Of a stretch of DNA of 64,000 nt, positions 46,394-59,052 are shown one piece after another. Position numbers and translations under genes: made by a program. Numbering within the stretch: position 1 is the stretch's first letter; every line of letters begins with the position of its first letter. The stretch comes from an uncultured Candidatus Saccharibacteria bacterium (GTDB lineage: Bacteria; Patescibacteriota; Minisyncoccia; Phycocordibacterales; PALSA-1337), in NCBI GenBank assembly GCA_964596595.1, contig CAZQUI010000003.1:979-64978 (forward strand). Direction: 5' to 3'. The notes beneath the pieces are model-generated. The model was not told the origin of the DNA and searched no databases. It saw only the letters and a list, made by a program, of their open reading frames with translations.

Positions 46394-48706
46394 ATGTCTA
46401 CCAAAAAAAGATTTTCGATAAAAAATTTAATTCGAAGTATTCAGAAAAGAGATGGTTCGATCGTTCCATTTGATCTCAAAAAAATTACCGCTGCTGTAAA
46501 CAAGGCAATGATAGCCTCAAAAGAAGGATCCGCAAAAGAGGCCAATATTATTGCCCAAAAAGTCTTAGCTGATGTGATCAGAATAACAAAAAAATACAAA
46601 AATTTTATTCCCAATGTCGAAGGTATACAAGACAGTGTCGAAAAAGAACTAATTCTTGGTGAATACGTAAAAACAGCCAAAGCCTACATTCTCTATCGTG
46701 AAGAACGTGCCAAAATACGCGCTCACGGACTTCGAGTTCCGCCGAGAATAAAAAAGCTAGCTGAGGAAAGTAAAAAATATTTTCGTAACCCACTTGGTGA
46801 ATTTGTCTATTATCGAACATATTCAAGATGGATGAGCCAAGAAGGTAGACGCGAGACTTGGATAGAGACCGTTGATAGATACATCTCATTTATGAAAGAA
46901 AATCTTGGTACAAAACTCAAAGAGTCAGAATATCAAGAACTAAAAGACGGTATCCTCAACCACGAAGCGATGCCCTCGATGAGGTTGTTACAATTTTCTG
47001 GTCCAGCTGCTCGTACTACAAACGTTTGTGCTTACAATTGTTCTTATATTGCACCAGAAAGTTTTCAAGACTTGGCAGAAATTATGTATGTCTCTATGTG
47101 TGGTACCGGAGTTGGCTGGTCAGCAGAAAGTCAAAATGTCCAAAAATTTCCGCAAATAAATATTCAAACGGGAATCAAATTACCAAAACATATTATTCCT
47201 GACAGCAAAGAAGGTTGGGCTGATTCTCTAAAATTTGCCATGAAGACATGGGCCGAAGGAAATGATATTGAATTTGATTATTCCTTACTTCGGCCCGCTG
47301 GAGCAAGACTAAAAACTATGGGAGGTAAAGCCTCGGGACCAGAACCGTTAATTAGACTTCTAACTTTTACTAGAGAAAAAATCCTAGCTCGACAAGGAAA
47401 ACGTCTACGAAATATAGATATTCACGATATTATTTGCATGATTGGCGATTGTGTTGTTTCTGGTGGAGTCCGCAGGAGCGCTATGATTTCTTTATCTGAT
47501 CTCGATGACATAGAAATCAGAGATGCCAAGAAAGGAGTATTTTATATCAACGAACCACAGAGAATGTTAGCCAATAACTCAGCAGTTTACATTAGCAAAC
47601 CAACAAACACTGAATTTATTGAAGAATGGACTGCTCTCATGAAATCTGGTTCCGGAGAAAGAGGTATATTTAATCGCGGATCACTTGCAGTTACACTTCC
47701 TGAGAGGAGAATTAAAATCTTAAAAGAATATAAAGGATATTTTGATGCTACAGGAAAAAGAATTATTGGATCAATTGGTACAAATCCTTGCGGTGAAATA
47801 ATTTTACAATCAAAACAATTTTGTAATCTTTCAGAAGTTGTAGCTAGAGCCGAAGACGATGAAAAATCGTTACTCAAAAAAATCCGCCTCGCTACAATCT
47901 TGGGAACATACCAAGCAAGCCTTACCCATTTTCCTTATCTTTCCAAAGAATGGAGCGAGAGATGTAAAAAAGAACGTCTTTTAGGGGTTTCTATTACTGG
48001 TCAATGGGATTGTCCAGCAACACGAGACCCGATAACCCTAAATAAACTCAAAAAAGAAGTAATCAAAATCAACCAAATTTACGCTAAAAGATTTGAAATA
48101 AATCCGTCAACTTGCACAACAGCCGTAAAACCATCTGGAACTTTGTCTCAAACTGTCGATTGTTCTTCAGGTATGCACCCTCGTCATGCTCCATTTTATA
48201 TTCGGCGCATAAGAATTGCAGCTACTGATTCTCTTTTTAAAATGCTCAAAGATCAAGGTGTGCCATATCACCCAGAAGTTGGACAATCCGCAGAAAACGC
48301 TACAACGTACGTCTTAGAATTCCCCATCAAATCTCCACCTGGTTCTATATATAAAAATGATTTAACGGCCATTGATCAACTGGAGCATTGGAAATTAGTT
48401 AAGCTTAATTACACTGAACACAACCCTTCAGTAACTATTTCTATTGGAGAAAATGAATGGATCGAAGTGGCAAATTGGATATACAATAATTGGGACATTG
48501 TTGGTGGTTTATCTTTCCTTCCGAGAGATAACCACATTTACCAACTTGCTCCTTATGAAGCCATAGATGAGCAAACTTATCTAAAGTTATCCGAACGACT
48601 CAAGCATATCGACTATTCAAAAATAATTACCTATGAAAAAACAGATGAACTTGATGTCAAAAAAGAACTTGCTTGTGTCGCTGGTGTATGTGAAATAGTT
48701 GTTTAG
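46394..48706 (+). CDS. nrdJ: class II (adenosylcobalamin-dependent) ribonucleotide reductase with an N-terminal ATP cone
   Basis: ATP cone IQKRDGSIVPFDLKKITAAV; active-site NPCGEI. Confidence 0.9.
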   Translation: MSTKKRFSIKNLIRSIQKRDGSIVPFDLKKITAAVNKAMIASKEGSAKEANIIAQKVLADVIRITKKYKNFIPNVEGIQDSVEKELILGEYVKTAKAYILYREERAKIRAHGLRVPPRIKKLAEESKKYFRNPLGEFVYYRTYSRWMSQEGRRETWIETVDRYISFMKENLGTKLKESEYQELKDGILNHEAMPSMRLLQFSGPAARTTNVCAYNCSYIAPESFQDLAEIMYVSMCGTGVGWSAESQNVQKFPQINIQTGIKLPKHIIPDSKEGWADSLKFAMKTWAEGNDIEFDYSLLRPAGARLKTMGGKASGPEPLIRLLTFTREKILARQGKRLRNIDIHDIICMIGDCVVSGGVRRSAMISLSDLDDIEIRDAKKGVFYINEPQRMLANNSAVYISKPTNTEFIEEWTALMKSGSGERGIFNRGSLAVTLPERRIKILKEYKGYFDATGKRIIGSIGTNPCGEIILQSKQFCNLSEVVARAEDDEKSLLKKIRLATILGTYQASLTHFPYLSKEWSERCKKERLLGVSITGQWDCPATRDPITLNKLKKEVIKINQIYAKRFEINPSTCTTAVKPSGTLSQTVDCSSGMHPRHAPFYIRRIRIAATDSLFKMLKDQGVPYHPEVGQSAENATTYVLEFPIKSPPGSIYKNDLTAIDQLEHWKLVKLNYTEHNPSVTISIGENEWIEVANWIYNNWDIVGGLSFLPRDNHIYQLAPYEAIDEQTYLKLSERLKHIDYSKIITYEKTDELDVKKELACVAGVCEIVV

Positions 48707-49767: not shown

Positions 49768-50163
49768 ATGAAAAAATACTTTCAAAAATGGCACGATAAA
49801 AAATCCGTAATTGACCAAATCGAGAAACGTCCCTTTTTCCACGAAGGTGAGATTTGGTGGTGCACTCTTGGGGTGAATATAGGATTTGAGCAAGACGGCG
49901 GAGGCGATGATTATCTTCGTCCGGTAATTATCTATAAGAAATTCAATAATGAGGTCTTCTGGGCTATTCCACTTACTCATACTAATAAGAAGACCAAATA
50001 TTACTTCCAGCTCACAAAAGAAAGTGATGCTCCAACGAGTTCGGCTATTTTGTCCCAAATACGCTTAGTAGATGCAAGGCGCTTGAGCCACAAGCTTAAG
50101 GTTAATGTTAGTAAAGATGATTTTTCTGCCTTAACAAAAAAATTCAAGACATTGCTACCTTGA
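49768..50163 (+). CDS. MazF/PemK-like endoribonuclease toxin-fold protein, with no adjacent antitoxin ORF
   Basis: GEIWWCTLGVNIGFEQDG...RPVIIYKKF...VFWAIPLTHT...IRLVDARRL matches the PemK/MazF pattern (RPvlV...v.P.TS...R). Confidence 0.5.
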   Translation: MKKYFQKWHDKKSVIDQIEKRPFFHEGEIWWCTLGVNIGFEQDGGGDDYLRPVIIYKKFNNEVFWAIPLTHTNKKTKYYFQLTKESDAPTSSAILSQIRLVDARRLSHKLKVNVSKDDFSALTKKFKTLLP

Positions 50164-51782: not shown

Positions 51783-52670
51783 TCAGCGAAAGGTTCCAGT
51801 GATATAGCTCGTAACTTCTTGTGACGTATCACCCAATAATTCTCCTGAGTTAGTGTTGTGATCAAGAGTGAAAATGCCATGACCAGTTTTCTCCATAAGC
51901 ATTATAAGAAGTGCGATTGATGCGGCTGAATCGGTATACTGACTTTTAAGTTTAAGCAGTCGGTCTATGTCTTTTGTTCGTATAACCTCCAACGTCACCT
52001 TATCCCTCTCTGAGGCTTCTTCTGCAGTAAGGTGATGAGAGAAATCTACAGGAGCAATTACCACAGCACCATCGCTTACGTACTTCTCAAGCGCATTTGC
52101 GAGCTCCTCTAACTCAGGTTTAGTAATGAGAGCGCTTAGCACCAAGGGAACAACTTTTGCCTGAGGAGTAAAGTAACTTACATAAGGCATCATGCCCTGA
52201 GTAGAATGTTCTTCTACCATAACCTCGTTGTTAAAAGAAACCAGGTTCTTTTGATGTAGGCTATCAAGAATTTGCCGATCAGTTTTCACAACTCCGAATT
52301 TTGTCTCCCAATCATTTGGACTAGAAATTACGAGTGCATTACCTTTCTCATAATGGTTTGGTCCTATTAAGATGATTGTTTGAGGACTTTGTTTAGCGAG
52401 GCGAGCAAACAACTCTCCAATAAGTGATCCTGCGACTAAGTGATGTGGAATAATACCACCCACAAACGGTACTTCGGTCCCTATCGTTCCTGGAACTGGT
52501 AACCCATCGTAAAAAGCCTTTTCTTCCCAGAATTTTACTGGCAAAGGACTGCCTACGGGTTCATTGGAGATGTTTCTTGTAGGAGAAGTCTGTTGATTAC
52601 GAGAAACAAGAACAATGAGAACTAGAAGGATGACAACCGCTCCTGAAATAATTGTATATCGTGACCACAT
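51783..52670 (-). CDS. MEMO1-family (AmmeMemoRadiSam system protein B-like; class III extradiol dioxygenase fold) protein with an N-terminal TM anchor
   Basis: GGIIPHHLVAGSLIG aligns with the MEMO block IIAPHAGYTYCG. LIGPNHY aligns with ILGPSHH. IAPVDFSHHL aligns with VVSSDFCHWG. The C-terminal Gly-rich end is similar to MEMO. N-terminal TM ISGAVVILLVLIVLV. Confidence 0.6.
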   Translation of the reverse strand: MWSRYTIISGAVVILLVLIVLVSRNQQTSPTRNISNEPVGSPLPVKFWEEKAFYDGLPVPGTIGTEVPFVGGIIPHHLVAGSLIGELFARLAKQSPQTIILIGPNHYEKGNALVISSPNDWETKFGVVKTDRQILDSLHQKNLVSFNNEVMVEEHSTQGMMPYVSYFTPQAKVVPLVLSALITKPELEELANALEKYVSDGAVVIAPVDFSHHLTAEEASERDKVTLEVIRTKDIDRLLKLKSQYTDSAASIALLIMLMEKTGHGIFTLDHNTNSGELLGDTSQEVTSYITGTFR

Positions 52671-52673
52671 TCT

Positions 52674-55600
52674 TTATTGAGGTAAATTAGGAGGAGTTAT
52701 TTGTTGCTTTTGTTTATATCGACGTACTCCGATAAATGCTCCGGCTGCTGCAAAAATAACTACGATAGCAATAAGAATGTTACTTCCATTTGAACTTGAA
52801 GATGAACCTTCAACAGCAGCTGTTCTTGGGTTATCATCGATAGTGACTTTTGTTGCACCGGTTCGTCCGTATACATCTGGATCGTACATTAGGAATGCAG
52901 TTGCAGGTGGAGTGTTATATACACCTCGACTTATAACCCGAGCTTTATAAGTAAATTCGACTATTCCATCATCCACATAATCAAATGATGTGATCATACC
53001 TTCCTTAGTAATCTCTTGAGCAGAAGGATAATCTCGTCCATCATAATAATTTCCATAGAAATCATTTGTAGACGAATATTCATTCTTGAACATTGGATTT
53101 ATTGGAACTAATCCCGCAGGCAATACATCTTCAATGACTAAGTATCGGCTACCAGCAGGTAGGCCGCTAACTTTCAGTCTTACTTCAACTGTTTGTCCTA
53201 CAAGGAAATCACCTTTGTAGTTTCGTTCCATTTTTAGATTATCCGCAACAGGCTTTGGCTCTCGATTTGTTTTGAATTCATCTACAACAAGAGTAGAGTA
53301 GAGTTCTCCTTGACCTGACTTTCCAATTGAAAGTTGCTGGCTTCCTGAAGTAATAGAGGTTATTGGAATAGAAATAGTTATCTCCTGGGTTAATGAATTG
53401 ATTTTACCCTGAGCAATATCTTTGTCTCCTAAACGGACCTGGTAATCGACATTCGGAGTTGTGCCACTGTAAATTTTTGAGAAGTCAGTAAGTGCCTCTA
53501 TTACCTGCGCAGTTGCAAAACTATTTCTCCAATATTCACGTGGTCGATTTTGATATAAATAACGAGCCGCTTGCTCAGCTTCATCTTTTTCACCAGCTAA
53601 GGTTAAAGCTCTAAGAGCTAGGGCAGTTGAAGCTTCAACTGATGGGAAAAACTCGCTATGTCCAGCTGTCCAATGGATCGTATTTTCAGAACGTTCAGCT
53701 TTGTTGATTAGTTCATTGACACCATTTTTTGAATTATCAGTGTAGCCATTTCTAATGTTTGAGATAATAGCAAGAGAAAGAATGTCTGGAGTAACATTTC
53801 TGAAATCTGTAAGCATTACTTTGCCCTTATCTGACCCAAGAAGGGAGAGTGTATAGATTTTAGCAATGCGAATTGAAGGGTCTGTTTCTTTGTCGATTTC
53901 ATACTCAAATCTTTGTTTTGTTCTATTGAGAATTGCTGCATCGACATCATACCCAAGACTTCTAGCTCGTACTAAATACTCAGTCGCATAAGCTGTGACA
54001 AAAGGATTGATCTCTCCCCATTGCCACCAGGTCCATCCACCTCCTGGTTGCGCTAGATCAGTCAATCTTTCTATTCCTTTCTCTACCATCTCATCCAAAT
54101 CGTTACGTTGTATAAATGATCCGAAAAGATCAGAATGTTCTTTCGCTAGAACAGCAGGAATAAATCGACTTGTTGTTTGTTCAATGCAACCATAAGGATA
54201 GTTGACCAAGTACTCCATCGCAGTTGGTAGTGTTCCTAAGAATGAAGAAGCTAAAGACAATGTCGCTTTCGATTTTGTTGGGCTGGCACCTTCACTAAGA
54301 GCTAAGGGGAACATTGCAGAATCCCGACCTACTTTTGCATACTTTTCAAAGAAGCCAAACTCCTCAACAGGTAGAGGTACCGTTACGGAATCTCTTTCAC
54401 CTGAGCCTTGTTTTTCAACTGATACATTCACTGTGGCAGCAGGATCAGGTGTTGTTGGGGTAACTTTCCAGAGAAGATTTTTTAGACCTCTTATTGGCAG
54501 ATCAAAGGCTTGAGTTGAGGAACCAAATGCTGTGAAGTTGAAAGAAGCTAGGAAATTTCCAGGCGAATCAGTAAAGTTGTGAGCAATTGATGCTAGTTCA
54601 AAAGTATCTCCCGCTCGCAAGAAATTAGGTAATGCTGGACGTACTATTACTGGTTTGGTAACCACGATTTCAGTTCTAGTTTCACCTACCTGAGTAAGAT
54701 TAGTAACGGCCACCGCATTCATAACCCAAGTCGTTAGATTATCCGGTAGTGTAAAGGTGACAGAGGCGCGACCATTAACATCTGTACGAACTGATGGATT
54801 CCAGTATGCTGTGTCCTTAAAAAGGGTCCTGCTCTCACCATCACCTTTATCATTATGTACCCAAATATTTCCAGCAAAGTAAGTGTGGTAACGTTCAATC
54901 TCAAGATTGTATACAGGCGTAACTCCTCTTTGCCATTCGATTGAACCAATAGCTAATTCCTCTCCTTTAGATGTAGTTACCTTATCTCCAATTTGAATAT
55001 CGCCAGCTACAGTCCATTTGTCATTTACCCAGAGTACATGTTCTGGAGTCACTTTCAAATCATGGTTGAGAATCAAGTAACCTGGAACAGTTGTCTCGTG
55101 AACAGCTTTTATTTTCGCACGAACTAATGTTGAGCTGTCATTACTTTCTTTGGTAAGAACAGTGTCTCCAACTTTTAAATCTTTTATAGGTACAGACCCA
55201 TTAGGAGTAAGAACTAGAGTGTCTCCAACAAAGCATCCTTTTTCAGCACCATTTGAAGAAATACCTTCAAATGAATGTGCGAAAGAAGTGGAGTTATAAC
55301 GACGATACCAAAAGGCATCGAATATAGGCTGACGAACTTCATTCATGAGCTCATAGAGGGATTTATCTACAGTCCATACTGCTACATCTGCCGACAAAGG
55401 ATTACCATTTACATCCGTAGTTGTTAAATCAAGCGTTACCTTTTCACCTGGAGCATACTTAGTGACATCTTCACGTAATTTAAGTGCAACAGCGACTTTT
55501 TTACTATCAGCCGAGACGGTTAGATCTTGAGTATTGTAATCAAAACTTTCTCCTGAAAAACTTGAAGCAGTAACAATGATATTTGGGATGTCTGTTGATA

Positions 55601-57752
55601 TTATTGGAACGGCCACTTGAGCAGATTTCCCCTTAAGTACTGCAATTTGGTAGCGATGAACACCATCACGTTCCAGCGACACAAAGACGTCTCTATCTGA
55701 AACTTCTGAAGTAATAGTGAACTGTGCTACTTCCCCTGGTTTATATTCTTTCTTATCAGCAGTGAGTGAAATTTTCTTCTGATATTGATTGTCATAGACT
55801 AATTCATTTTCTGATACTACCCATATTGAAAATTCTCGCTCAACCCGATTACCCCTACTATCAATATAAGAAACTTTGAAGATATGAGAGCCTGGATTAT
55901 TTGGAACGAAATTAATAACTGCTTCACCATTGGCATTACTTGTAACAGTAAAATTCTTTAATGACTCCGTATGGTCCTCATAGACAAAGAGAGGGCTGTA
56001 CTTACCTGGTTTACGGTCTGGATTTATTTTTCTTGTCCACCAATGTCTGCGTGGTTCAACTGAAAGTTGGACTCCTGACACAGAAGCGTTCGAATTAGCT
56101 AGAAGCTTTAATGGGAGAGAAATAGGTTCTCCAACTCTTGAACCGTAGCGATAAGATGATCGATAAACCGAATATTCACCAGCATGAACCAGTACATTTT
56201 TCTTGGTAACAGATGGGTTTCCGCTCTCATCAATGTAGCTGGCCTCGAAAACAAGAACGTGATCCTTACCATCAGATAATGCAGGGAGATTACGAGTGTC
56301 TAATTCGACAGAGGTCATGCCTTTTTCATCGAGCACAACACTATCTTCTTTGATTCTTTGCCCTCCCCAATACCCGTATTGGTATCTATCATCAAGATTA
56401 GTGCTAGAAGATGGAGAAAGGTAATAGTCACTTTCATAAAAATCAGCTGATGACACTGTGTACTTAACAGTTTGATTTGAAATAGGCTGACCAAAGAAAT
56501 ATTGACCAGAGATTGTATATTGAGCTTTATCACCTCTGATAATCTCCGGTGTATTCGTATCAACATTTATACTGTATTCAGGTTTTCTATAATGCTCCAC
56601 ATAAAAGGTAGTCAGACCACGCAACCATTGTGTGCGTTCTATTTCTTGATTTGTTGCAACCTCAACCTGATAGAAGCCAGTCGGTGAGGATTCTGGTAGA
56701 ACATATGATCCAGAAACTGTTCCCTCTGGGGATATTGGAATGTCACGTTCATATACGGCCTCATTCGTATCGTAATTTCGCAATACTCGTACATGTGCTG
56801 TTCCTGAAGGGATGGTGTAAGTAGCGTCATTATCATTTCTGACAATTGCTTTGAAATATACAGTATCGCCTGGCTTATAAAGAGGGCGATCGGTAAAAAG
56901 ATAATATTTTCGAGAAATAGTATCTGGACCAAAATCTTCGTACCTATATGAACTTGGCAAATTCAAGACCAGTAAAGCTAAATCATTGCCAGAACTTATT
57001 AAAGCAATGTCTCCTGCTTTATTAACCGGAAGACGAGCAACGCCTGTAGCATCAAAATTAGCTGAGCCGATTGTTGTCGGTGTATTTTCTAGATTGTAGA
57101 CGGCTATAGAACCCGAACCGACACTTTTTCCTGTACGTAATGATTGCTGCCAAACAATCAAATCATTATTACCTTCTCTTATTAGTCCTCCGATGTTTGA
57201 TCGGAGAATCACTGCATCGTTATAGGAATTATCATCCATCGTTGCACGTACCAACCAGAGACCAGTATCACTTATCGGAAGACTGACTTTTTGTTCTGCA
57301 GCTCCAGCATATGAAAGTTCAGTTACAAACTCCAAACCAGCAATGTCGAATGGTTTGGTATTGTAGTTTTCATACCCATTCTGATTCTTTTCTTTTGTAT
57401 ACGTTAAAAATTTAAGTAGATCTTCTTTATCAATACGATATAACGAAACTTTTAGTTGCTTGTGGAGTACTAGTCCATTGTAGTACTTCGAAATATTTAC
57501 AGCGGGTTCTTCGCTCGGTCCAAGAACGATGACTGACTGCGAACCATAATTGTTCTCTTTGTTTGCATTTGTAATTCGAATTTCTCCTGATCGCGACAAA
57601 CCCTGTGCGTATGGAGCCAAACTTACAAAAGCTATTACTGCTAGTACAAAAAAGCCAGCTAAAGAAACTCGACCTTTGCTGGTTTGAAACTGCTTTTTTA
57701 ATAAAAAACCTATCTGACTTAAGCGCTGGACCAGGCGATGACCATTTTTCAT
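52674..57752 (-). CDS. bacterial alpha-2-macroglobulin-family protein with a thioester (CIEQ), an embedded Hint/BIL domain and a C-terminal TM anchor
   Basis: Thioester-domain signature LVNYPYGCIEQTTSRF (Cys codon at 54186-54188). GGWTWWQW and the alpha/alpha-toroid region lie downstream. The N-terminal half is long and beta-rich (MG-like). Signal/TM at the N-terminus. C-terminal ILIAIVVIFAAAGAFIGV followed by RRYKQKQ. The start is placed at MKNGHRLVQ; the track ORF begins 57 nt upstream at 57809. Confidence 0.8.
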   Translation of the reverse strand: MKNGHRLVQRLSQIGFLLKKQFQTSKGRVSLAGFFVLAVIAFVSLAPYAQGLSRSGEIRITNANKENNYGSQSVIVLGPSEEPAVNISKYYNGLVLHKQLKVSLYRIDKEDLLKFLTYTKEKNQNGYENYNTKPFDIAGLEFVTELSYAGAAEQKVSLPISDTGLWLVRATMDDNSYNDAVILRSNIGGLIREGNNDLIVWQQSLRTGKSVGSGSIAVYNLENTPTTIGSANFDATGVARLPVNKAGDIALISSGNDLALLVLNLPSSYRYEDFGPDTISRKYYLFTDRPLYKPGDTVYFKAIVRNDNDATYTIPSGTAHVRVLRNYDTNEAVYERDIPISPEGTVSGSYVLPESSPTGFYQVEVATNQEIERTQWLRGLTTFYVEHYRKPEYSINVDTNTPEIIRGDKAQYTISGQYFFGQPISNQTVKYTVSSADFYESDYYLSPSSSTNLDDRYQYGYWGGQRIKEDSVVLDEKGMTSVELDTRNLPALSDGKDHVLVFEASYIDESGNPSVTKKNVLVHAGEYSVYRSSYRYGSRVGEPISLPLKLLANSNASVSGVQLSVEPRRHWWTRKINPDRKPGKYSPLFVYEDHTESLKNFTVTSNANGEAVINFVPNNPGSHIFKVSYIDSRGNRVEREFSIWVVSENELVYDNQYQKKISLTADKKEYKPGEVAQFTITSEVSDRDVFVSLERDGVHRYQIAVLKGKSAQVAVPIISTDIPNIIVTASSFSGESFDYNTQDLTVSADSKKVAVALKLREDVTKYAPGEKVTLDLTTTDVNGNPLSADVAVWTVDKSLYELMNEVRQPIFDAFWYRRYNSTSFAHSFEGISSNGAEKGCFVGDTLVLTPNGSVPIKDLKVGDTVLTKESNDSSTLVRAKIKAVHETTVPGYLILNHDLKVTPEHVLWVNDKWTVAGDIQIGDKVTTSKGEELAIGSIEWQRGVTPVYNLEIERYHTYFAGNIWVHNDKGDGESRTLFKDTAYWNPSVRTDVNGRASVTFTLPDNLTTWVMNAVAVTNLTQVGETRTEIVVTKPVIVRPALPNFLRAGDTFELASIAHNFTDSPGNFLASFNFTAFGSSTQAFDLPIRGLKNLLWKVTPTTPDPAATVNVSVEKQGSGERDSVTVPLPVEEFGFFEKYAKVGRDSAMFPLALSEGASPTKSKATLSLASSFLGTLPTAMEYLVNYPYGCIEQTTSRFIPAVLAKEHSDLFGSFIQRNDLDEMVEKGIERLTDLAQPGGGWTWWQWGEINPFVTAYATEYLVRARSLGYDVDAAILNRTKQRFEYEIDKETDPSIRIAKIYTLSLLGSDKGKVMLTDFRNVTPDILSLAIISNIRNGYTDNSKNGVNELINKAERSENTIHWTAGHSEFFPSVEASTALALRALTLAGEKDEAEQAARYLYQNRPREYWRNSFATAQVIEALTDFSKIYSGTTPNVDYQVRLGDKDIAQGKINSLTQEITISIPITSITSGSQQLSIGKSGQGELYSTLVVDEFKTNREPKPVADNLKMERNYKGDFLVGQTVEVRLKVSGLPAGSRYLVIEDVLPAGLVPINPMFKNEYSSTNDFYGNYYDGRDYPSAQEITKEGMITSFDYVDDGIVEFTYKARVISRGVYNTPPATAFLMYDPDVYGRTGATKVTIDDNPRTAAVEGSSSSSNGSNILIAIVVIFAAAGAFIGVRRYKQKQQITPPNLPQ
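54852..55235 (-). other. Hint (intein-like / BIL) domain of about 128 aa inside the A2M-like protein (residues about 859-986 of the track ORF)
   Basis: Block A is CFVGDTLVLTPNGSVPIKDLKVGD. Block B is LKVTPEHVLWV (TxxH). The C-terminal blocks are VYNLEIERYHTYFAGNIWVHN, ending His-Asn. The next residue is Asp rather than a Cys/Ser/Thr nucleophile, and there is no homing-endonuclease insert. Confidence 0.7.
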
Positions 57753-57789
57753 TTTAATTGTAATTAATAATTGAGAACAATTTATAATT

Positions 57790-58906
57790 CGATGGCTAAA
57801 CTGTAGCACAAAAACGTTTTACATGTCGAAATATTACTAGCCCAAAATATGTCAAAATGTCTCAAAACAAACAGCTCGACCCAAGAACAAGACAACGACT
57901 TCGCTGGATTGAACACTATAAGGAAATAACCAAACAAGTCTCTCTAACCTGCCGGTATTTCGGTATCAGTCGTGGCACGTTCTGCATCTGGTATCATCGT
58001 TACCTGTCGCTTGGGATTGAAGGTCTCAAAAACAAATCCTCAAGACCCCACAAGATCCACCCTTGGATACCAAAGGATGTGAGAGATACTATCATTGAAC
58101 TGCGCCTACAACGTAAATATGGTCCAATTAGGATGTCTTCGTATATCAAACAGAAATATAACTGGTTTGTCTCTGCCAGAACGATCTGGAGACTCTACAA
58201 GGAGCATGGGTTGAATCGTCTGAAATACAAGAAAAATTGGCAGAGGTATCCTCAGCACTACGCCAAACCTAATCCAGGCGACAGAGTCCAAATAGACGTT
58301 AAATTCCTTGATAGATTGGAAAATGGCAAACGATACTATCAGTTCACTGCCATTGATGACTGTACTAGATACCGAGTGCTAAGGATCTATGACCACAACA
58401 CTGTTCAAAATGCTTCCGACTTCATCGACAAAGTAAAGAATGCTCTACCGTTTGCGATCAAGCAGGTGCAGACTGACAATGGTAGCGAGTTTTCCGAGAA
58501 ATTCAGTTGGCATATGGATGACCTGGGCATTACACACAGGAAAACGAAGATTTGTTCGCAAGAAGAGAATGGAAAAGTTGAACGCAGTCACAAAACTGAT
58601 CAGGCAGAGTTCTACGGCATTAATCGTTTTGTTTCGATTGATCACTGTATGAAGCTTCTCAAACAGTGGGAGAAAGAATACAATGAGTACAGGCCTCACA
58701 TGGCACTCAAAGGAAAAACTCCTAGAGAATTTCTCGAAGAAAAACTACGAGGTCATGTGTCAAATCAGGCACTTACAGTGCCACTCAAAAGTGTTCAAGA
58801 GGTACGGAGAATTCTACATAGGGTCTGTGAATGACTTTTTGGGAAGTTCGAGCCCATGACTGGTTCTCAAAACTTCTTGATCGAAACGGCATTTTTAGCC
58901 GTCTCG
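57790..58906 (+). mobile_element. IS481-family insertion sequence
   Basis: Single rve/DDE transposase ORF. Candidate terminal inverted repeats are TCGATGGCTAAACTGTA (left, about 57791) and the reverse complement of CATTTTTAGCCGTCTCGA (right, about 58888-58906), which share TCGA.(C/T)GGCTAAA. The ends are approximate. Confidence 0.6.
57857..58834 (+). CDS. IS481-family transposase (integrase catalytic core, DDE)
   Basis: N-terminal HTH; catalytic D (QIDVKF), D (FTAIDDCTRY) and E (NGKVERSHKT); C-terminal YNEYRPHMALKGKTP typical of IS481/IS3-group integrase cores. Confidence 0.85.
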   Translation: MSQNKQLDPRTRQRLRWIEHYKEITKQVSLTCRYFGISRGTFCIWYHRYLSLGIEGLKNKSSRPHKIHPWIPKDVRDTIIELRLQRKYGPIRMSSYIKQKYNWFVSARTIWRLYKEHGLNRLKYKKNWQRYPQHYAKPNPGDRVQIDVKFLDRLENGKRYYQFTAIDDCTRYRVLRIYDHNTVQNASDFIDKVKNALPFAIKQVQTDNGSEFSEKFSWHMDDLGITHRKTKICSQEENGKVERSHKTDQAEFYGINRFVSIDHCMKLLKQWEKEYNEYRPHMALKGKTPREFLEEKLRGHVSNQALTVPLKSVQEVRRILHRVCE

Positions 58907-58923
58907 ATAGGTCTCACATGACT

Positions 58924-58994
58924 GCTGCGGGACTTGGATTCGAACCAAGATAAACGGCTTCAAAGGCCGCTGTCCTACCATTAGACGATCCCGC
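58924..58994 (-). tRNA. tRNA-Gln (anticodon UUG)
   Basis: Minus-strand cloverleaf: acceptor TGCGGGA/TCCCGCA; anticodon loop CT-TTG-AA; T-loop TTCGAAT; discriminator G; 71 nt. Confidence 0.85.
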
Positions 58995-59052
58995 AAAGAT
59001 GTGGTAATAGCTTATAGTTTTTATGACTTAAAGTAAATACACCACTTATTTA

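Follow-up and report, generated by a model that had tools for sequence, protein, structure and literature searches.

In alpha-2-macroglobulins (A2Ms), in complement C3, C4 and C5, and in the insect thioester proteins (TEPs), it is a cut in one loop, made by an external protease, that matures or fires the thioester warhead. The loop cut in C3, C4, C5 and insect TEP1 is topologically equivalent, being in an MG domain interrupted by the bait or anaphylatoxin region, and the outcome is a multi-chain or primed thioester protein. Does the cutting agent have to come from outside? The subject here is a gene at 52674..57752 on the minus strand of a 64,000-nucleotide stretch (the window) of contig CAZQUI010000003.1, from an uncultured Candidatus Saccharibacteria bacterium, that encodes an A2M with a Hint domain, of the bacterial intein-like (BIL) kind, in its bait linker. 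Whereas C3, C4, C5 and TEP1 are cut by external proteases, furin and convertases among them, the predicted cutting chemistry of this protein lies within the polypeptide.

The bacterial counterparts of the host protein are the type-1 A2Ms of Escherichia coli (ECAM, or YfhM) and Salmonella (SaA2M). In ECAM, bait cleavage leaves the bait untethered and the thioester exposed, and after cleavage by elastase bait residues Arg923-Leu942 are disordered (PMC4498604). For the inserted domain the precedents are the type A BILs, which splice by aminolysis through a freed alpha-amine (PMC4031507), and the Tetrahymena BIL2, which forms a Lys isopeptide (PMC8616854). The parts are familiar; their combination, the position in the bait and the conservation throughout a family appear to be undescribed. 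No papers joining A2M with Hint, intein or BIL domains were found in a full-text literature search, and papers on the candidate phyla radiation (CPR) name A2M-domain surface proteins only as a putative defence against host proteases. Database names for family members cover one half only, examples being 'Intein C-terminal splicing domain-containing protein', 'alpha-2-macroglobulin family protein' or 'MG2 domain-containing protein'.

A Hint domain within the bait linker of a bacterial A2M

A first-pass annotation of the window had recognised the hallmarks of a bacterial A2M, and the gene is that of an extracytoplasmic, membrane-anchored, thioester-containing A2M of the ECAM/SaA2M type. The open reading frame (ORF), 52674..57809 (-), gives 1711 aa when counted from an upstream GTG and 1692 aa when started at ATG 57752, the start used in that annotation; the 1692-aa form is 100% identical, over its full length, to a public protein (P0020) which begins at the same ATG. 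A promoter-like site (TCGACA, 18 nt, TACAGT, with TG upstream) at 57800..57829 (-) lies within the GTG extension and upstream of ATG 57752, a position consistent with that ATG being the real start; promoter-like sites such as this show no enrichment over shuffled sequence. Residues are numbered here from the ATG, which makes the key ones C840, N967 and C1189. They are C859, N986 and C1208 when counted from the GTG, and in that numbering the positions originally given (859, 986 and about 1208) were all correct.

The protein starts with a hydrophobic segment, GRVSLAGFFVLAVIAFVSLAPYAQG in translation, which is a signal peptide or signal anchor without a lipobox Cys (57600..57674, -). The N-terminal MG domains, residues 52-802 (55347..57599, -), are matched by Pfam and by phmmer against SaA2M 192-519, and include MG2 (residues 283-370) and A2M_BRD (residues 661-802, E 2.7e-16), both above cut-off, a bMG3 match being below it. 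After the bait come the A2M (MG) domain (PF00207, residues 981-1063, E 1.6e-19, above cut-off; 54564..54812, -), the TED_complement match (residues 1174-1274, 24.5 bits against a cut-off of 22) and an MG10 domain (bMG10, residues 1511-1626, E 6.9e-20, 72 bits, above cut-off; 52875..53222, -). Within the TED is the thioester motif GCIEQ, with Cys1189 and Gln1192 (54177..54191, -), and its identity as the thioester, proposed from the string YPYGCIEQ, was borne out by phmmer alignment of that string onto the YPYGCLEQ of the Salmonella protein. The translation ends with a transmembrane segment, ILIAIVVIFAAAGAFIGV (52725..52778, -), followed by the basic tail RRYKQKQ; the only Cys in the protein are C840 and C1189, and the suggestion of a C-terminal anchor in place of a lipobox has held.

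The best matches among PDB sequences (phmmer) are Salmonella A2M 4u48 (E 3e-33) and ECAM. An AlphaFold2 (AF2) model of residues 500-1650 has a pLDDT of 82.5, and with it Foldseek puts native ECAM (5a42) and SaA2M (4u48) on top (E ~2e-44), followed by A2ML1, TEP1r, C5 and CD109. The window protein has the same order of parts as ECAM and SaA2M, i.e., MG domains, a bait-region domain, MG, CUB/TED with CxEQ, and a C-terminal MG10. However, identity in the fold alignment is ~14–16%, those two proteins have the N-terminal lipobox of periplasmic lipoproteins where the window protein has an N-terminal signal and a C-terminal transmembrane anchor, and the bait is here a short Gly-rich linker carrying the Hint.

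That Hint runs from Cys840 to Asn967 (54852..55235, -), 128 aa between GAEKG|CFVGD and NIWVHN|DKG with KVTPEH as block B, so that the Cys1, the TxxH, the terminal HN and the Asp at +1 are in translation just as first described. The first-pass annotation had called for Hint and intein profiles to be run on the central segment, and two score above their cut-offs: Pfam PT-HINT (PF07591), which is the best Pfam model, with 48.9 bits against 27.7 over residues 846-968, and Hint_2 with 29.0 bits against 28.4. In isolation the domain finds the Clostridium thermocellum BIL 2lwy as its best match among PDB sequences (E 2.9e-13), end to end, the alignment taking in TxxH and the terminal VHN. A separate AF2 model of the domain has a pLDDT of 95–98 in every 10-residue block and a pTM of 0.80. 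The best Foldseek match of that model is the BIL2 of Tetrahymena BUBL, 6y75/6tmm (E 3e-11, TM 0.75–0.80); 2lwy is also a top match (TMt 0.84, rmsd 1.8), and mini-inteins and a hedgehog domain come lower.

With C840, T902-x-x-H905, H966-N967 and a non-nucleophilic residue at +1, the Hint is, by features of sequence and fold, BIL-like and of type A, and its nearest solved relatives (2lwy, BIL2) are BIL domains, which agrees with the earlier view of a BIL pattern as opposed to a true intein. The likeness to C. thermocellum BIL4 (2lwy) extends to a length of ~130 aa, Cys1, TxxH, His-Asn, the lack of both a +1 nucleophile and an endonuclease, and a secreted host protein. What differs from type A BILs is that host protein and insertion site are new and that the flanks are conserved (Gly-1 and [QDE]-Lys-Gly); moreover type A BILs are sporadic, whereas, as described in the next section, this Hint is inherited vertically across a deep clade. 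As for BIL2 of BUBL, the best structural match, its Cys1 thioester and terminal Asn serve to join the N-extein to the epsilon-amine of a Lys, and the A2M Hint may likewise use a Lys. However, BUBL is eukaryotic and intracellular with ubiquitin-like flanks, and the identity of its BIL2 to the A2M Hint is 18–19%.

Other assignments of the domain fit less well. A true mobile intein was rejected, there being no endonuclease domain in the 128 aa, no +1 nucleophile (the residue is Asp968), a Hint identity that follows that of the host, no near-identical Hint in any distant host compared, and a GC content (0.38) equal to that of the gene (0.395 ± 0.018). Canonical class 1 inteins, mini-inteins included, require Cys, Ser or Thr at +1, which is absent here, and among relatives Ser has that place in 1/132 and 2/99 only. 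Nor do site and mobility recall a canonical intein, the insertion being in a variable Gly-rich linker and the divergence of the Hint paralleling that of its host. Could it be a polymorphic toxin cassette, as the name of the best Pfam model, Pretoxin-HINT, might imply? This was rejected also: non-A2M PT-HINT relatives have C-terminal tails, the toxin, of ~100–140 aa after the Hint, where here ~725 residues of conserved A2M follow and there is no C-terminal toxin. A hedgehog-type Hog domain, which has a sterol- or adduct-recognition region and no cleavage at a C-terminal Asn, is contradicted by the lack of any extension past the 128-aa Hint and by an invariant terminal His-Asn. PT-HINT-type relatives of the domain occur in Actinobacteria, CPR and DPANN, and in a neighbour-joining tree of this short domain the A2M Hints do not form a clean clade with respect to the non-A2M Hints of CPR and DPANN.

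Where in the A2M is the Hint? To place the bait, E. coli K-12 yfhM (ECAM) was added to the family alignment. ECAM RYGADIYDIYGQVIEGQGRL, corresponding to R923-L942, aligns with window RRYNSTSFAHSFEGISSNGAEKG, the segment immediately N-terminal to Cys840; after Asn967, window DKGDGESRTLF is aligned with ECAM GGDGDELKRGG. The N-flank of the linker, YRRYNSTSFAHSFEGISSNGAEKG (55236..55307, -), ends in an invariant Gly-1 and has low AF2 pLDDT, and the C-flank, DKGDGESRTL (54822..54851, -), supplies the +1 Asp, Lys+2 and Gly+3 whose counts are given below. The AF2 model has the Hint as a confident all-beta domain with low-confidence linkers on either side (model residues 322-338 and 471-482). Given the ECAM bait alignment and these low-confidence flanks, the Hint lies within the bait linker, the position first assigned to it. 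Leaving the Hint aside, the conserved anchors HSLEG and FKD are 19.2 ± 1.1 residues apart in proteins that have it and 19.2 ± 1.2 in those that lack it. By these alignments the Hint is an insertion mid-way in a Gly-rich linker of conserved length. Of the original suggestion that it replaced or augmented the bait, the replacement has to be given up; an insertion in mid-linker, with the 19.2 residues kept, is what stands.

Conservation and loss in the family

Relatives were sampled in two ways. The first sample was Hint-seeded and combined a pattern scan, one genome per species, with a full-length protein search. The scan gave ~35 loci with ~1700-aa A2Ms that have the Hint at the same place, in hosts that are mostly Patescibacteria (Daviesbacteria, Microgenomates, WWE3, Saccharibacteria, Parcubacteria, Moranbacteria and others), and the protein search gave ~100 further family members. 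The resulting alignment has 148 sequences, 132 with the Hint and 16 without. All 148 have GCxEQ. Gly-1, Cys1, Thr and His of block B and the final His-Asn pair occur without exception in 132/132; the +1 residue is Q in 67, D in 42, E in 15, G in 3, N in 2, S in 1 and K in 1, and is followed by Lys+2 in 131/132 and Gly+3 in 129/132. The second sample was a census with a Hint-free query (residues 968-1692), by phmmer, of a set of clusters at 50% identity with 1.84 billion representatives. The Hint is present in 99/121 (82%) of its full-length top matches, all 99 with G|C and [VA]HN kept. The survey for a Hint at the same position that the first-pass annotation had advised was thus answered twice, by 132/148 aligned sequences and by 99/121 census representatives. 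With over 130 homologues built in the same way, the architecture is far beyond chance. The catalytic residues are retained through family divergence to 35–40% identity.

Mean pairwise identity is 0.51 for the Hint and 0.425 for the rest of the protein, and within the window's own clade the paired values, Hint first and host second, are 0.76/0.82, 0.78/0.77 and 0.68/0.66. No near-identical Hints in distant hosts were seen among the family members compared. On these comparisons the Hint is under purifying selection and is inherited vertically with the host protein. An N-terminal hydrophobic segment is present in 134/145 family members, as is one at the C-terminus, again 134/145, after which the tails listed (uncounted) are basic. 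The ectodomain has exactly two Cys, the Hint Cys1 and the thioester Cys, in 114/129 Hint-positive members, and Hint-less proteins have mostly one.

The family has its oddities. Four divergent representatives (P0253, P0258, P0260 and P0264) have lost CxEQ and have the Hint with G|C...HN|xK intact. Larger A2M variants of 1740–2285 aa (L036-L039, one of them from a WOR-1 metagenome-assembled genome, MAG) have the same GGG|C...HN|[QD]K Hint at a later point in the chain. In an Amesbacteria long-read MAG (L026, 7688..12676) the A2M::Hint gene is broken into at least 7 ORFs, either as a pseudogene or in a frameshift-rich assembly. Some MAGs bear the labels Gammaproteobacteria, Pseudomonadales, Bdellovibrionales, Nevskiaceae or Dehalococcoidia (L001-L003, L010, L015-L017, L022, L024-L025, L027, L029, L031, L033-L035; P0001, P0048); their A2M::Hint proteins group in the family with those of CPR-named MAGs, and the proteobacterial and Dehalococcoidia labels are probably unreliable.

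What of those that do without? The 16 aligned Hint-less relatives, and the 22/121 such census representatives, have a linker of the form AE[KRMG]GGG-GGG..R.FKDTAYWNP. On a neighbour-joining tree of the host protein (trees were made from identity distances, this one without the Hint columns) they fall in ~9 separate groups. Close pairs that differ in the Hint exist: P0111, without it, and P0067, with it, are 80% identical, and for P0134 and P0137 the value is 74%. Between P0111 and P0067 the DNA has a single 387-nt indel bounded by GGN (Gly-codon) runs; recent gene conversion was rejected as its source, DNA identity beside the indel not being raised. The P0067 Hint is nearest to the Hints of the host-tree neighbours of P0067, and this points to loss in the lineage of P0111. 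The indel unit is C...HN[QDE]K, and therefore the [QDE]K dipeptide of the C-flank, which Hint-less orthologues lack, is part of the element. The pattern of presence and absence fits several independent and precise losses in which linker length was kept. The Hint may persist because it serves a purpose, or for no other reason than that a precursor left unprocessed would be dead. In favour of the Hint being useful is that 82% of lineages retain it although the linker tolerates its deletion. In the Hint-less proteins P0098-P0136 (e.g., P0111, locus L083, 908..5704) the bait is nearly poly-glycine, AEKGGGGGGEG, an odd target for most proteases and one to which lysostaphin-type glycyl-glycine endopeptidases would be well suited.

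Possible outcomes: self-excision, self-nicking or capture

That the Hint chemistry runs at all, and the route by which its thioester would be resolved, we infer from intein and BIL chemistry (PMC4031507). On that basis the protein would be exported by Sec and fold with the Hint pendant off the bait, the N- and C-ends of the Hint adjacent and the linker at native length. Cys840, with Thr902 and His905 of block B, would carry out an N-to-S acyl shift by which the peptide bond Gly839-Cys840 becomes a thioester in the backbone, and cyclisation of Asn967, with His966, would break the Asn967-Asp968 bond. As there is no +1 nucleophile, the Gly839 thioester would have to be resolved by an amine of the C-flank. 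One candidate is the alpha-amine that cleavage leaves on residue 968, as in type A BILs; the other is the epsilon-amine of the near-invariant Lys969, an isopeptide route of the BIL2 type. With either amine the bait would be re-closed and the Hint released, and the mature form would be an A2M with intact bait, armed and equivalent to the Hint-less orthologues. Maturation would then have to pass through the Hint, without a protease and possibly only under certain conditions, at the very site that controls the trap.

Excision of the Hint by itself after export seems the most likely course. The further step, that a C-flank amine re-joins the bait once the Hint has removed itself, is the reading we lean to, tentatively. 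The first-pass annotation considered canonical splicing unlikely and regarded N- or C-terminal autocleavage as chemically possible. The first part holds, there being no +1 nucleophile; ligation by aminolysis or through an isopeptide has BIL precedents and should be counted among the possibilities. Re-joining is preferred because Lys+2, Gly+3 and Gly-1 are near-invariant in a linker that is otherwise free, because Hint-positive and Hint-less forms have been swapped repeatedly without other change, and because a protease trap requires an intact bait. Several points weigh against it. For characterised BILs the N- and C-cleaved products predominate over ligated ones (PMC4031507, PMC7664689). The invariance of the flanking residues could serve efficiency of cleavage and not ligation, and Lys+2 may be a habit of the clade, Lys beside the terminal HN being common among non-A2M Hints of CPR and DPANN organisms as well. 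Equal linker length would also be expected if native folding were needed by the precursor alone. Finally, Hint processing in these proteins is a prediction from sequence and modelled structures.

The tendency of BILs to yield mostly cleaved products is also what gives substance to the main rival outcome, self-nicking, which we consider somewhat unlikely. The Gly839 thioester would be hydrolysed, the Hint lost and the bait cut, with the two chains held together by the MG domain they share, and the result would be either a form primed in the manner of furin-processed C3/C4 or TEP1cut, or a trap that fires without a protease; Hint-less orthologues would need an external protease for an equivalent cut. 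The residues required for both cleavages are invariant, the body fold matches native ECAM, TEP1r, C5 and CD109 (Foldseek), and the insertion point, as the bait is mapped here, is the loop of chain processing in C3/C4/C5 and of triggering in A2Ms. Besides, the retention of the Hint by four relatives that have no thioester implies that its use is not bound to an intact armed trap. Against self-nicking, a history of several independent changes between having and lacking the Hint, with nothing else altered, is less parsimonious should the two forms differ in what they do, and the near-invariant Lys+2 is left without a reason. Moreover, bait cleavage in ECAM exposes the thioester (PMC4498604), and a bait that is always nicked would use up the warhead if nothing stabilised the cut form.

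There is a bolder combination, unlikely but worth stating, in which the Hint makes the bait both a chemical trigger that needs no protease and a second warhead. The protein would have two thioesters, the pre-formed one of the TED and Gly839~Cys840, and a Lys would resolve the latter. This could be Lys969, with a bait spliced through an isopeptide, a reaction for which BIL2 of Tetrahymena BUBL is so far the only case described, or it could be a Lys of a target, for instance an enzyme that attacks the cell or a protein on the surface of the host. Capture of the nucleophile would by itself suffice to open the bait and so to fire the TED. Gating by metal or redox state might then come through the extracytoplasmic Memo-like protein, encoded by the next gene and co-transcribed. 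If this were true, Patescibacteria would possess a self-firing, complement-like system for covalent capture or adhesion.

Lower in probability, and in our estimate distinctly improbable, is that the Hint serves as a second warhead or a nucleophile-gated trigger, the Gly839~Cys840 thioester being resolved in trans by an amine of the target, be it an attacking enzyme or a host cell surface. The N-terminal half would be linked to the target, the bait opened and the TED thioester fired, giving an episymbiont a protease-independent device for covalent capture or adhesion; BIL2 of BUBL, acting on ubiquitin-like domains, and hedgehog, acting on cholesterol, would be the analogues. Ubiquitin-like proteins end in Gly, as does the A2M N-extein, whose Gly is invariant and often part of Gly-Gly, and the top fold match, BIL2, conjugates the C-terminus of its N-extein to a Lys of other proteins. 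Both ectodomain Cys of the 114/129 Hint-positive members would form thioesters, and the surface-anchored topology would suit CPR hosts with an inferred epibiotic lifestyle. However, Asn cyclisation would not be needed and yet His-Asn is invariant; the Hint is a minimal domain of 128 aa with no adduct-recognition region; Hint-less orthologues manage without it; and the proposal is inferential throughout.

A catalytically silent passenger in a loop flexible enough to tolerate its presence or absence, or a mis-assembly, is close to refuted by the recurrence of the same insertion in both sets of independent sequences (132 and 99), which come from many assemblies, by the loss in none of Cys1, the block-B Thr/His or the terminal His-Asn, by the Hint being more conserved than its host protein, and by a GC content equal to that of the gene.

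A deep bacterial clade has the predicted bond-breaking chemistry built into the bait loop with every catalytic residue kept, and a Hint could, as was first suggested, be a new way of triggering or maturing a thioester trap. If the Hint is active, this would be natural, genetically encoded and protease-free processing or triggering of a thioester protein, and point mutants would give access to the way in which opening of the bait is coupled to activation of the thioester. It would also provide a concrete and conserved host function for BIL domains, whose biological roles remain poorly defined. Self-activating traps and covalent binders are conceivable engineering uses.

The Memo-like partner and other neighbours

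A gene at 51783..52670 (-), 3 nt downstream of the A2M gene, encodes a Memo-like protein of 295 aa with an N-terminal membrane anchor (Pfam Memo, E 7.8e-29; TIGR04336, 116.9 bits). Whereas E. coli yfhM adjoins pbpC (PBP1C), the A2M gene here, and in 24 related loci, adjoins a Memo-like gene. Such a gene (~300 aa) is immediately downstream of the A2M in 23 loci, often with overlap at the stop codon, and upstream in 1, and it also adjoins Hint-less orthologues. Over 36 loci it is the only conserved neighbour, no other gene being conserved beside the A2M/Memo-like pair. That the two share contigs is suggested by the many Memo homologues on contigs equal in size to those of A2M matches (e.g., 6104, 115399 and 56278 bp). 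All of the Memo-like proteins (27 neighbours) have an N-terminal membrane anchor, and the neighbour is presumably membrane-anchored and extracytoplasmic. Among the motifs that the window Memo-like protein shares with human MEMO1 are the His-containing IIPH, GPNH and DFSH, plus EEHS; of the residues in them, N105-H106 and H212 do not vary across the 27 neighbours. With D223 and D247 added, all are conserved at ≥90%. If the Hint is active, A2M::Hint and an extracytoplasmic Memo-like protein would make up a surface module found widely among Patescibacteria, a group about whose cell surface and dealings with hosts little is known.

Tandem pairs of Memo-like genes follow the A2M gene in L022, L032 and L033, and in L084 a cupredoxin gene comes after the Memo-like gene. 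An AmmeMemoRadiSam system was considered and rejected, the adjacent window ORFs that were scanned having no AMMECR1 or radical SAM partner domains. The short intergenic gaps noted at the outset for the two genes that follow, of 3 nt and 15 nt, agree with the ORF coordinates. Of these two tightly packed genes, conservation makes the Memo-like one a partner; the 210-aa downstream gene was rejected as part of the system since it is not conserved and has no Pfam match.

Elsewhere in the window, where the Rfam matches are tRNAs only, a class II ribonucleotide reductase-like ORF with an ATP-cone, 46394..48706 (+), has a catalytic-barrel profile match over residues 462-510 only, and is very divergent or interrupted. 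A MazF/PemK-like toxin ORF (E 3e-9) at 49768..50163 (+) has a 97-aa ORF overlapping it on the other strand. On the other side of the A2M gene, and divergent from it, is an IS481-family transposase ORF (rve and HTH) at 57857..58834 (+), 105 nt upstream of the A2M start, and just past this ORF is a tRNA gene at 58925..58995 (-).

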